Positions 1 to 3,000 of a stretch of 64,000 nucleotides of DNA are shown here, piece after piece. Origin of the DNA: Escherichia coli (GTDB lineage Bacteria > Pseudomonadota > Gammaproteobacteria > Enterobacterales > Enterobacteriaceae); the NCBI RefSeq assembly GCF_030013595.1, contig NZ_CP122768.1; one strand, given 5' to 3'. Position 1 is the stretch's first letter. The number at the start of each line of letters is the position of its first letter. Position numbers: made by a program.

Positions 1-3000
1 AAACGTACATGCGGGACAGGCGAACGCACTATTGTACTTTGATATAGACTATCAGTGAGGTTAATATGACACGATATTGGAATTTAATTGCCCTATTATT
101 CTCTGTGATATCTATGTCATCCATTGCTGATGATACAACGCATGCAGGTGTTGTACGCATCGAAGGAATTATAACAGCAAAGACTTGTATTGTTGCCGAT
201 GAGTCTAAAAATTTCACAGTTAACATGCCTGATGTTCCCAGTTATACGGTGAGAAATTCAGGGAGTGTTACTGAAAAAATTGGCTTCTCTTTAAAGTTAA
301 CCCGTTGTGGCAGTGATGTCAGTAATGCCAATGTCACGTTTGATGGAATACCAGTTAGTGAAGACGCAGCCCTATATAAACTGGAAGAGGGCTCAGTCGA
401 TGGGTTAGCACTGGCTATTTTTGATAACAACAGACAAAGTATTAGTAATGGTATAAAGAGTACAAGTTATGCCCTTACACCATTGGTAGATAATACATTG
501 CATTTCTTTGCTGCTTATAAAGCTATAAAAAATGATGTACAACCAGGAGATGCGAATGCATCAGTTTCCTTTATCGTCACTTATGATTAACGTGCTGATA
601 TGCATTTTAATATGTTGCACAAATGCGCAGGCAGGAGTTGTTGTTGGCGGTACTCGTTTTGTTTACCCAGAAAAGCAGTCATCAATTTCGGTCGAGCTTA
701 AAAATACTGCCAGTAAAGATATGCTGGTTAAAATTTCCGTGACACCTGATGATGGACGTCAGTTAAAAGGGACACTGGAATCCCAGCCTTTACTTCCAGA
801 TAAGGCGTTTATTGCCACACCACCATTATTGGTACTTAAACAAGATAAAAATACCAAAATAAGAATCAATCGCGTGGGGGGGCAGTTACCTATAGATCGT
901 GAGAGTTTATTTATACTGAATATTGCAGCGTTACCTGCTCAGGAACAAAACTCACAGCTTAAGAATGAAAATCAACTCCAGGTGGCTGTACGTAATAGGA
1001 TGAAAATATTTTACCGCCCAGAGACGTTATCAGGTAATCCACTTGACGCTTATCAACAGTTACGCTGGTCGCGAAACAATGAAGCTGTCACCGTTTTTAA
1101 CCCTACGCCCTGGTATGTGACACTCTATAATTTATCTATTGATGGTAAAAGCATAAATGGTGGCATGGTTGCACCATTTAGTCATCGCCAACAGGATTGG
1201 TGTCAGCGGCAAGGATATTGTGAGATTAACTGGCAAACACTAGATCTTTACAATAATGCCTTACCCGTATGGAGCGTAAAATTAAATGTTTTACAAAATA
1301 ATGCTATTATGGGTGCAGTAGCGATACATGGATAACTGGAGAAGCATGATGCTTACTTATTTTTGGGGAAATATAAAAGCAATTTGTATATTGTTTGTTC
1401 TTTTAGTCAGTAGCTGCTATAACATAGTATATGCTGAAGATATGGGACGGGATCGCGCCTTTTGTTATCCTGGTGCACCAGGTAATAATACTACTCCTGC
1501 GACATTTTCTTATAATTTTGGTACGGTAATTGTCTCAGATGTTAATAATAATTCGCCTGGGACAGTATTACCCTCGCAGGACTGGAAAATAGGGCATTAT
1601 AAGGCTTATTGTAATTCTCTGGATGATTATGAGGTTTATTTTTCTGGTGTTTCTGGGATTGATCCGTCAGGAGCGTCTGGTGATCATCAGGGGAGCGATA
1701 TATTTATTCCTTTGACTCATGAAATATCTGTCTCGACACATGTAAAGCTCTATAATAAAAATGGCACAATGACAGATAAGGCAGTACCTTTTGACAACTA
1801 TAGCACCAATTATCCAGCAGACAGAAGTAAACCATCAAGTTGGGCCTCAGGAACAGAAGGTTATATAAAAATCAGACTTGATAAAAAAATAATATCCGAT
1901 ATATCAATAAATAACGTATTGCTGGTTTCTTTGTATGTCAGCCAGTTTCCAACAGAGCACGGACCAATTCCAGTATTTAATGCTTATATTGGCAACTTAA
2001 ATATTGAAGTTCCACAAGGTTGCACAATTAATGAGGGAACTAGTTTTACCGTTAATATGCCGGATGTCTGGGCCAGCGAATTAAGTCGGGCTGGTGCTGG
2101 AGTAAAACCAACAGGTATTTCTCCAGTGGCAACCACTATTCCGATAAATTGTACGAACAAAGATATTGATGCCGTAATGACGCTGGTTTTCGATGGCAAT
2201 ATTTCATCAACGAGAGATGTTAATGGTCGGCAAAGCATTATTCAGGCGGAGGATAACCCCGACGTTGGCATTATGATTATGGATAGCCAACAGGAATCCG
2301 TAGACTTAAATGCATTGGCTGCGCATGTTGGTGTGCCATTTAAGTTAGTTGAAAACCAGGCTGAGTCAGCTCAGACGGCAGATGTGACTTTTCTGTCTCT
2401 CCCTGTAAGTACCACAGGGCGACGCCCTGCTGCAGGCCGTTATAATGCCCTGGCTGTTTTGCGGGTGGAATACCAATGATGTGTGAGTCAGTGCAGAATC
2501 GGATTAGCCCGTTTTTAGCCATCGGTAGGGTAAAGTTTGATGGAAAATATGGGTTATGTGCCGATGTATCCCACAATGAAATAACCCTCGAGGGAAAGGA
2601 ATCAGCGCGATGAACAAATTCACGGTGTTTTGCTGCTAGGTGTGGTATTTCTCGGCTTTATTATTGTACCGTTCTTGATATGGCCGACGGTGGTTGCGCT
2701 GGCTGCTTGTATTATTACGCTGAGTTTTCTGGGGAGATACTGTTCTCTATCCCGCTCATGATCAGGCATATTTCACTTCTGGAATTACAACTTTGGTTAT
2801 CGGTTGTATATGCGCTTTGTCCATGCCGGATGCGACGTGAACGTCTTATTGGCCTACAAAATCATGCAAATTCAATATATTGCATAAACCACGTAGGCCT
2901 GATAAGCGTAGCGCATCAGGCAGTTTTTTTGTTTATCATCAGTCTCAGGTCAGATTGAAATCTGACCTGACCACCTTACGTTAAATCACGAAGCCAGCGA

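Follow-up and report, generated by a model that had tools for sequence, protein, structure and literature searches.

In the window, the 64-kb stretch of Escherichia coli DNA analysed here, a fimbrial operon lies between glgP and glpD, and its seven genes follow the aufABCDEFG order according to the RefSeq annotation of the same locus. The auf operon is known to sit in the glpD..glgP region, and the literature on yzgL and on the fimbrial context of glgP and glpD yielded nothing beyond this placement (PMC12928451). The last gene of the operon, coding for an aufG-like adhesin, faces the convergent glpD gene, which is followed by glpE, glpG and glpR (Table 1). A short hydrophobic reading frame had been reported between the fimbrial genes and glpD by the first-pass annotation, and it is indeed found there. 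Starting from the ATG at 2610-2612, both the sequence and the ORF list give MNKFTVFCC and then a TAG at 2637-2639, as announced. A run of four T (T4) occupies positions 2628-2631. A 43-aa ORF with a TTG start (2630-2761, + strand), in a frame other than that of ATG 2610, reads MLLGVVFLGFIIVPFLIWPTVVALAACIITLSFLGRYCSLSRS and includes a strongly hydrophobic segment of 19 residues (Kyte-Doolittle 2.56). The addition of one T to the run was computed to join both frames into a 50-aa ORF (MNKFTVFLLLGVVFLGF...SRS), in agreement with the hydrophobic peptide of about 50 residues that a one-base change had been said to open.

We consider it very probable that the segment 2510-2818 is a non-functional, fixed relic of a cluster of three genes, referred to here as PstS503, PstS330 and HP200. 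PstS503 and PstS330 designate a 503-aa PstS-family protein and a 330-aa PstS-family lipoprotein, and HP200 designates an unnamed Escherichia membrane protein of 196-201 aa, usually 200 aa. The stretch is already known as a RefSeq pseudogene, whose call spans the equivalent of window 2618-2832 in every copy opened, and it is a case of ordinary genome decay. Its anatomy as a three-part chimera with four defined lesions is added here (Table 1).

Table 1. Features of the interval between the fimbrial operon and glpD (window coordinates).
Feature	Position	Strand	Basis
aufG-like adhesin, last gene of the fimbrial operon	1328-2479	+	ORF list; RefSeq annotation of the same locus
Relic 1: PstS503 3' tail, last ~24 codons, ...MENMGYVPMYPTMK (...GYVPMYPTMK), stop TAA 2582-2584	2510-2584	+	local DNA alignment to L008; five-way alignment
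Original PstS503-PstS330 intergenic spacer with Shine-Dalgarno-like GAGGGAAAGGA	2585-2609	+	alignment
Relic 2: PstS330 start codon and codons 1-11	2610-2641	+	alignment to the 5' ends of three alleles; ORF list
Loss of one C, TTCACCGGT to TTCACGGT (intact alleles TTCACC(G/T)GT)	2622/2623	+	alignment to three PstS330 alleles
In-frame deletion junction, ~989 bp, PstS330 codon 11 to HP200 codon ~11	2642-2645	+	alignments; frame arithmetic on L004 coordinates
Relic 3: HP200 codons ~12-69 (e.g. WP_000981061.1), net -1 inside	2646-2818	+	tblastn; DNA alignment to six alleles; RefSeq pseudogene call
Net -1 frameshift around HP200 codon 41	2731-2739	+	window CTGGGGAGATA versus intact CTGGGAGAAATA or CTGGGGGAAATG
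GCGCTTT microhomology at the 442-bp deletion junction	2812-2818	+	window TATATGCGCTTTGTCCATGCCGG, the exact join
REP/BIME-type dispersed repeat	2819-2946		copy number; Rfam ES036; sequence read
Inverted repeat of 12 bp, perfect, TCAGGTCAGATT / AATCTGACCTGA, immediately beyond the stop of glpD	2945-2970		
glpD, convergent with the relic	2986-4506	-	

The three parts were delimited by pairwise and local alignments, used in place of a global MAFFT alignment against strain 54214 that misaligned the region. In the first part, amino acids 485-502 of PstS503 match window 2528-2581 in a tblastn search. The same upstream tail was also considered as PstS330, a candidate ruled out by local scores of 104 for PstS503 versus 32. 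The spacer that follows is near-identical in the alleles L008, L002 and L004 (TAACGCTCGAGAGAAAGGAATCAGCG(A/C)(G/A)ATGAA), and the whole of 2585-2641 agrees with these three PstS330 alleles base for base, save one missing C. The intact PstS330 protein starts with MNKFT(G/C)VLLLGTALLAGC, its 5' end reading ATG AAT AAA TTC ACC GGT GTT TTA CTA TTA GGC, that is MNKFTGVLLLG, and then TALLAGC (lipobox). From about 2646 the window (TATTTCTCGGCTTT...) corresponds to HP200 from codon ~12 onward. The 200-aa HP200 of O157:H7 matches the window by tblastn in two frames, namely 2645-2734 with amino acids 12-41 (83% identity) and 2725-2832 with amino acids 39-74 (75% identity), with a combined E of 1.5e-21; nothing further was found below E = 0.8 anywhere in the 64-kb window. 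This homology contradicts the view of a hydrophobic frame arising by chance. It was considered whether 2610-2645 could be the 5' end of HP200, strongly diverged and with a net insertion of 5; local alignment ruled this out by identifying the tail of PstS503, the spacer and the start of PstS330. Judged by homology, the hydrophobic peptide is the putative signal-peptide start of the PstS330 lipoprotein (MNKFT-VLLLG) joined to the predicted first hydrophobic helix of HP200 (FLGFIIVPFLIWPTVVALAACIITLSFLG...). It is thus made of pieces of a 330-aa and a 200-aa protein, which is at odds with its description as a small membrane protein gene.

Four lesions separate this chimera from its parent genes. 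The loss of one C in PstS330 codon 5 shifts the frame and thereby creates the TAG at 2637-2639. The frame had been described as broken at the T-tract, but the true lesion lies a few bases upstream of it; the T4 run itself is not the lesion since the intact PstS330 alleles L008, L002 and L004 have the same GTGTTTT(A/G)C. The second lesion is the deletion of ~989 bp, which removed the whole PBP domain of PstS330. The PF12849 (PBP_like_2) domain is found in the intact 330-aa protein and is absent from the window, in which a tblastn search with PstS330 gave no hit. The third lesion is the net loss of one base within the HP200 part, because of which the 43-aa frame ends. The fourth is a deletion of 442 bp that took HP200 codons 70-200 together with about 40 bp of 3' flank, leaving codon 69 abutting the REP element. 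In intact loci GCGCTTT is present both inside the gene (L008 3668, codons 68-69) and 442 bp further on, before REP (L008 4110), and the homology to HP200 ends at window 2818. The HP200 remnant amounts to about 29% of the gene (codons ~11-69, in two frames), its own start and C-terminal two thirds being gone, and no complete ORF of 196-201 codons is found. Repair of the T run would not rescue the gene because the second frameshift and both deletions would remain; even the repair of both frameshifts was computed to give a 116-aa product running into REP sequence. The relic presumably yields no useful product.

The relic is shared by a sizeable set of genomes. An 81-nt query that covers the T run and the 989-bp junction is matched at full length by 227 complete E. 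coli genomes. Sixty rows were taken evenly, from best to worst, among these 227, and all of them span exactly 81 nt (97.5% identity for the worst); likewise, the 29 sampled full-length rows of a 336-nt query all cover exactly 336 nt, with identities of at least 99.1%. The comparison of T-tract length across strains carrying the relic, suggested by the first-pass annotation, revealed no change in any sampled row. The indel check covers 60 of the 227 rows, so that a few genomes may carry a rare variant in length. A query with five T and a query with the C restored found no perfect match in any genome, a test that covers only the 51 genomes with the exact haplotype of the window. Five copies aligned base by base differ from the window by SNPs only, at relic sites 2564, 2603, 2615 and 2768, and all lesions are common to the five; no substitution falls inside 2630-2761. 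The count of 227 genomes obtained with the 81-nt query was found again with the aufG-like gene and with a 601-nt query across everything, and the two junctions tested are confined to these same 227 genomes. In all of them the relic is at least 99% identical, while most show a difference of about 2.4% in the adjoining adhesin gene. The low divergence of the relic relative to the adhesin gene could be read as constraint, but a comparison based on 2-3 SNPs in 336 bp has no power, and adhesin genes are often unusually variable. Window 2400-3000 is 100% identical to the sequence of the O169:H41 strain Res13-Lact-PER13-34. The rtcR gene is intact in the window (6639-8237, 532 aa) and is annotated as frameshifted by RefSeq in that strain.

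The parent genes are found intact at the same locus in other strains. In many E. coli the glgP-glpD interval contains PstS503, then either PstS330 or a YbbD-like protein and a 255-aa protein, and then HP200 in all cases. Intact HP200 lies directly upstream of the convergent glpD in O157:H7 (WP_000981061.1), ST131 (WP_001033839.1), 042 (WP_000589355.1), strain 48, TUM18530 and the B2 auf strains, and a match to its gene occurs in 3,689 of 5,426 complete genomes. The position of last gene before glpD is common to the window remnant and to HP200 of L002, L004-L008, L013 and L014. HP200 is preceded by either of two unrelated cassettes, consisting of PstS330 or of the 255-aa protein (L006 1025-3113, L005 1736-3111, L013 3719-5807, L012 121-1499); the latter is itself preceded by the YbbD-like protein of 236 aa in L006, L013 and L014. 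The final dozen or so codons (...YDASSES.G.) are common to both kinds of gene immediately upstream of HP200.

Downstream of the operon, the B2 auf strains carry the YbbD-like gene, then the 255-aa gene and an intact HP201. Their adhesin gene has 76-78% DNA identity with that of the window. About 30 nt after the adhesin stop are the same in the window (2440-2610), L013 (3508-3725) and L014 (3510-3730). The PstS503 3' tail begins at the same point in the window and in the B2 auf loci, with ~55 extra nt in between in B2.

A history of the locus can be proposed from these comparisons. An auf-like fimbrial operon would have replaced PstS503, of which only about the last 24 codons were left. The ~989-bp deletion would then have fused PstS330 codons 1-11 in frame to HP200 codon ~11. 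The loss of the C in codon 5, the one-base loss around HP200 codon 41 and the 442-bp deletion between the GCGCTTT repeats may have followed, the latter joining HP200 to the REP element before the convergent glpD. This order of events is the one that we infer. The replacement of PstS503 by the fimbrial cassette probably occurred once, ancestrally, and the later decay would be specific to the lineage of the window.

HP200 itself appears to belong to a family restricted to Escherichia. It has no match in Pfam, NCBIfam or PADLOC, and a HMMER profile search of 1.84 billion representative proteins returned 42 hits and no wider family. These hits comprise one full-length cluster, one distant metagenomic relative of 184 aa (P0104) and fragments, most of the hits being truncated or frameshifted; the named sources are E. 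coli, E. albertii, E. marmotae and Escherichia sp. Hydropathy predicts a strong first transmembrane segment, followed by one or more others. The AlphaFold2 model, built on an alignment of 12 sequences, is all-helical and unreliable (mean pLDDT 48.9), which was too poor for a fold search to be undertaken. On its metagenome contig, P0104 adjoins a protein 50% identical to the 255-aa neighbour of HP200. Gene neighbourhood suggests that the 255-aa protein and HP200 may form a functional pair.

Other damaged copies of HP200 were encountered. The gene yzgL of K-12 MG1655 (b3427; L015 4725-5009) matches PstS503 amino acids 1-82 and, overlapping, HP200 amino acids 158-200. One class of HP200 alleles carries two runs of seven T, at nt 203 and nt 414 (L002 3967-4567 and L010 3470-4070 versus L016 308-907 and L017 308-913). 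In HP200 of the 54214 type these runs have slipped from T7 to T9 and from T7 to T6 and the gene is annotated as frameshifted, whereas close T7/T7 relatives retain an intact gene; this broken allele is matched at 99% identity or more in 252 genomes. Homopolymer slippage in HP200 is real, but it lies outside the part surviving in the window. HP200 has decayed independently several times, in K-12 yzgL and in the 54214-type allele as well as in the window.

Between the relic and glpD lie dispersed repeats. In 5,425 E. coli genomes, the REP part of the query occurs at a median of 17 copies per genome, and the REP hairpin is followed by seven T (2915-2931). Rfam ES036 (CssrF sRNA) matches 2858-2900 (+) with 43.6 bits for a gathering score of 37.6; given this copy number, the match probably reflects the repeat family and not a specific sRNA gene. 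A match to naRNA4 (CssrE) at 2896-2972 (-) stays below threshold with 20.6 bits.

Against the preferred reading of 2510-2818 as a non-functional relic, it can be argued that the relic has been co-opted as a new small membrane protein, made from the 43-aa TTG ORF or by frameshifting from ATG 2610. Its hydrophobic segment, the invariance of 2630-2761 in the five copies and an SD-like AAGGA located 9 nt before ATG 2610 speak in its favour. No comparable SD-like sequence was read before TTG 2630, however, and a pattern scan of 2300-3050 found no promoter-like (sigma-70-like) site; the two terminator-like sites of the pattern scan are both inside the adhesin gene. The invariance also fits a recent common ancestry, with only 2-3 SNPs per 336 bp, and the terminus of the ORF is a frameshift scar instead of a conserved end. 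The exhaustive protein search gave only HP200 fragments and one 93-aa call from the same relic. A check of conservation, also proposed at first reading, found no independent family for the peptide, whose sequence belongs in relatives to the 330-aa and 200-aa genes. Such a co-option is therefore judged unlikely. The 93-aa call (P0131, equivalent to window 2479-2761) is a public gene call from a variant of the relic and a spurious protein, in which the loss of one base near 2585-2587 fuses an ORF starting at 2476 to the hydrophobic frame. Should transcription of the fimbrial operon read through as far as ATG 2610, translation of the 9-codon ORF would be possible. Read-through might even allow the chimeric frame to be translated, with TTG 2630 as start or with a +1 slip after initiation at ATG 2610, which would make of it a newborn membrane micro-protein of the auf-like lineage of 227 genomes; this is likewise judged unlikely.

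A phase-variable (contingency) gene for a small membrane protein, switched by slippage of the T run, is highly improbable. One added T does open the 50-aa hydrophobic frame from ATG 2610, and T7 runs have slipped to T9 and T6 in other HP200 alleles. Slippage switches are typically homopolymers of 7 or more nt, and the run counts only 4 T. Phase variation is unsupported since T4 is also present in intact PstS330 genes and since no length change was seen in the 60 and 29 sampled rows from the 227 genomes, to which the absence of a perfect T5 match can be added. The actual lesion is a lost C, and in the "on" state the product would be a chimera cut short at the second frameshift. Some sequencing technologies often produce single-base errors in homopolymers, but an artefact of this kind, like a hydrophobic frame due to chance, is scarcely credible given the same sequence in 227 independent complete assemblies, four separate lesions of which two are large deletions, and the E value of the HP200 homology. 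From the original proposal of a decayed or phase-variable small membrane protein gene, or chance, decay is retained; the small-protein gene, phase variation and chance are not.

The relic, a case of routine decay at a variable locus of the E. coli genome, matters little in itself. It calls for caution in that a "one-base fix" beside a short homopolymer can mislead, as the true lesion is the C lost upstream and two unrelated genes have each supplied a piece of the peptide. HP200, the parent gene, codes for a membrane protein of narrow taxonomic range; it is mildly interesting and has no functional form in the window.

Compared with intact HP200, to codons ~12-69 of which window 2646-2818 is homologous (75-83% amino acid identity to the O157 protein), the window copy is a pseudogene fragment and not a product-bearing member of the family. 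With the 330-aa lipoprotein (e.g. WP_001032214.1) the window shares the start codon, the SD-bearing spacer and codons 1-11 (MNKFT.VLLLG), but it has neither the lipobox nor the binding domain and is one C short in codon 5. K-12 yzgL is likewise a relic of the glgP-glpD cluster, generated by an internal deletion that fused the ends of unrelated genes. It is nevertheless an independent event with other breakpoints, K-12 keeping the C-terminal end of HP200 and the window its N-terminal third, and K-12, unlike the window, has no fimbrial operon at this site. As in slipped-strand contingency genes, a frameshifted ORF stands next to a homopolymer in the window, here beside a fimbrial operon; in contrast to such genes, the run is a T4, is invariant in the inspected rows and lies apart from the lesion, and a full-length product is obtained at none of its lengths.
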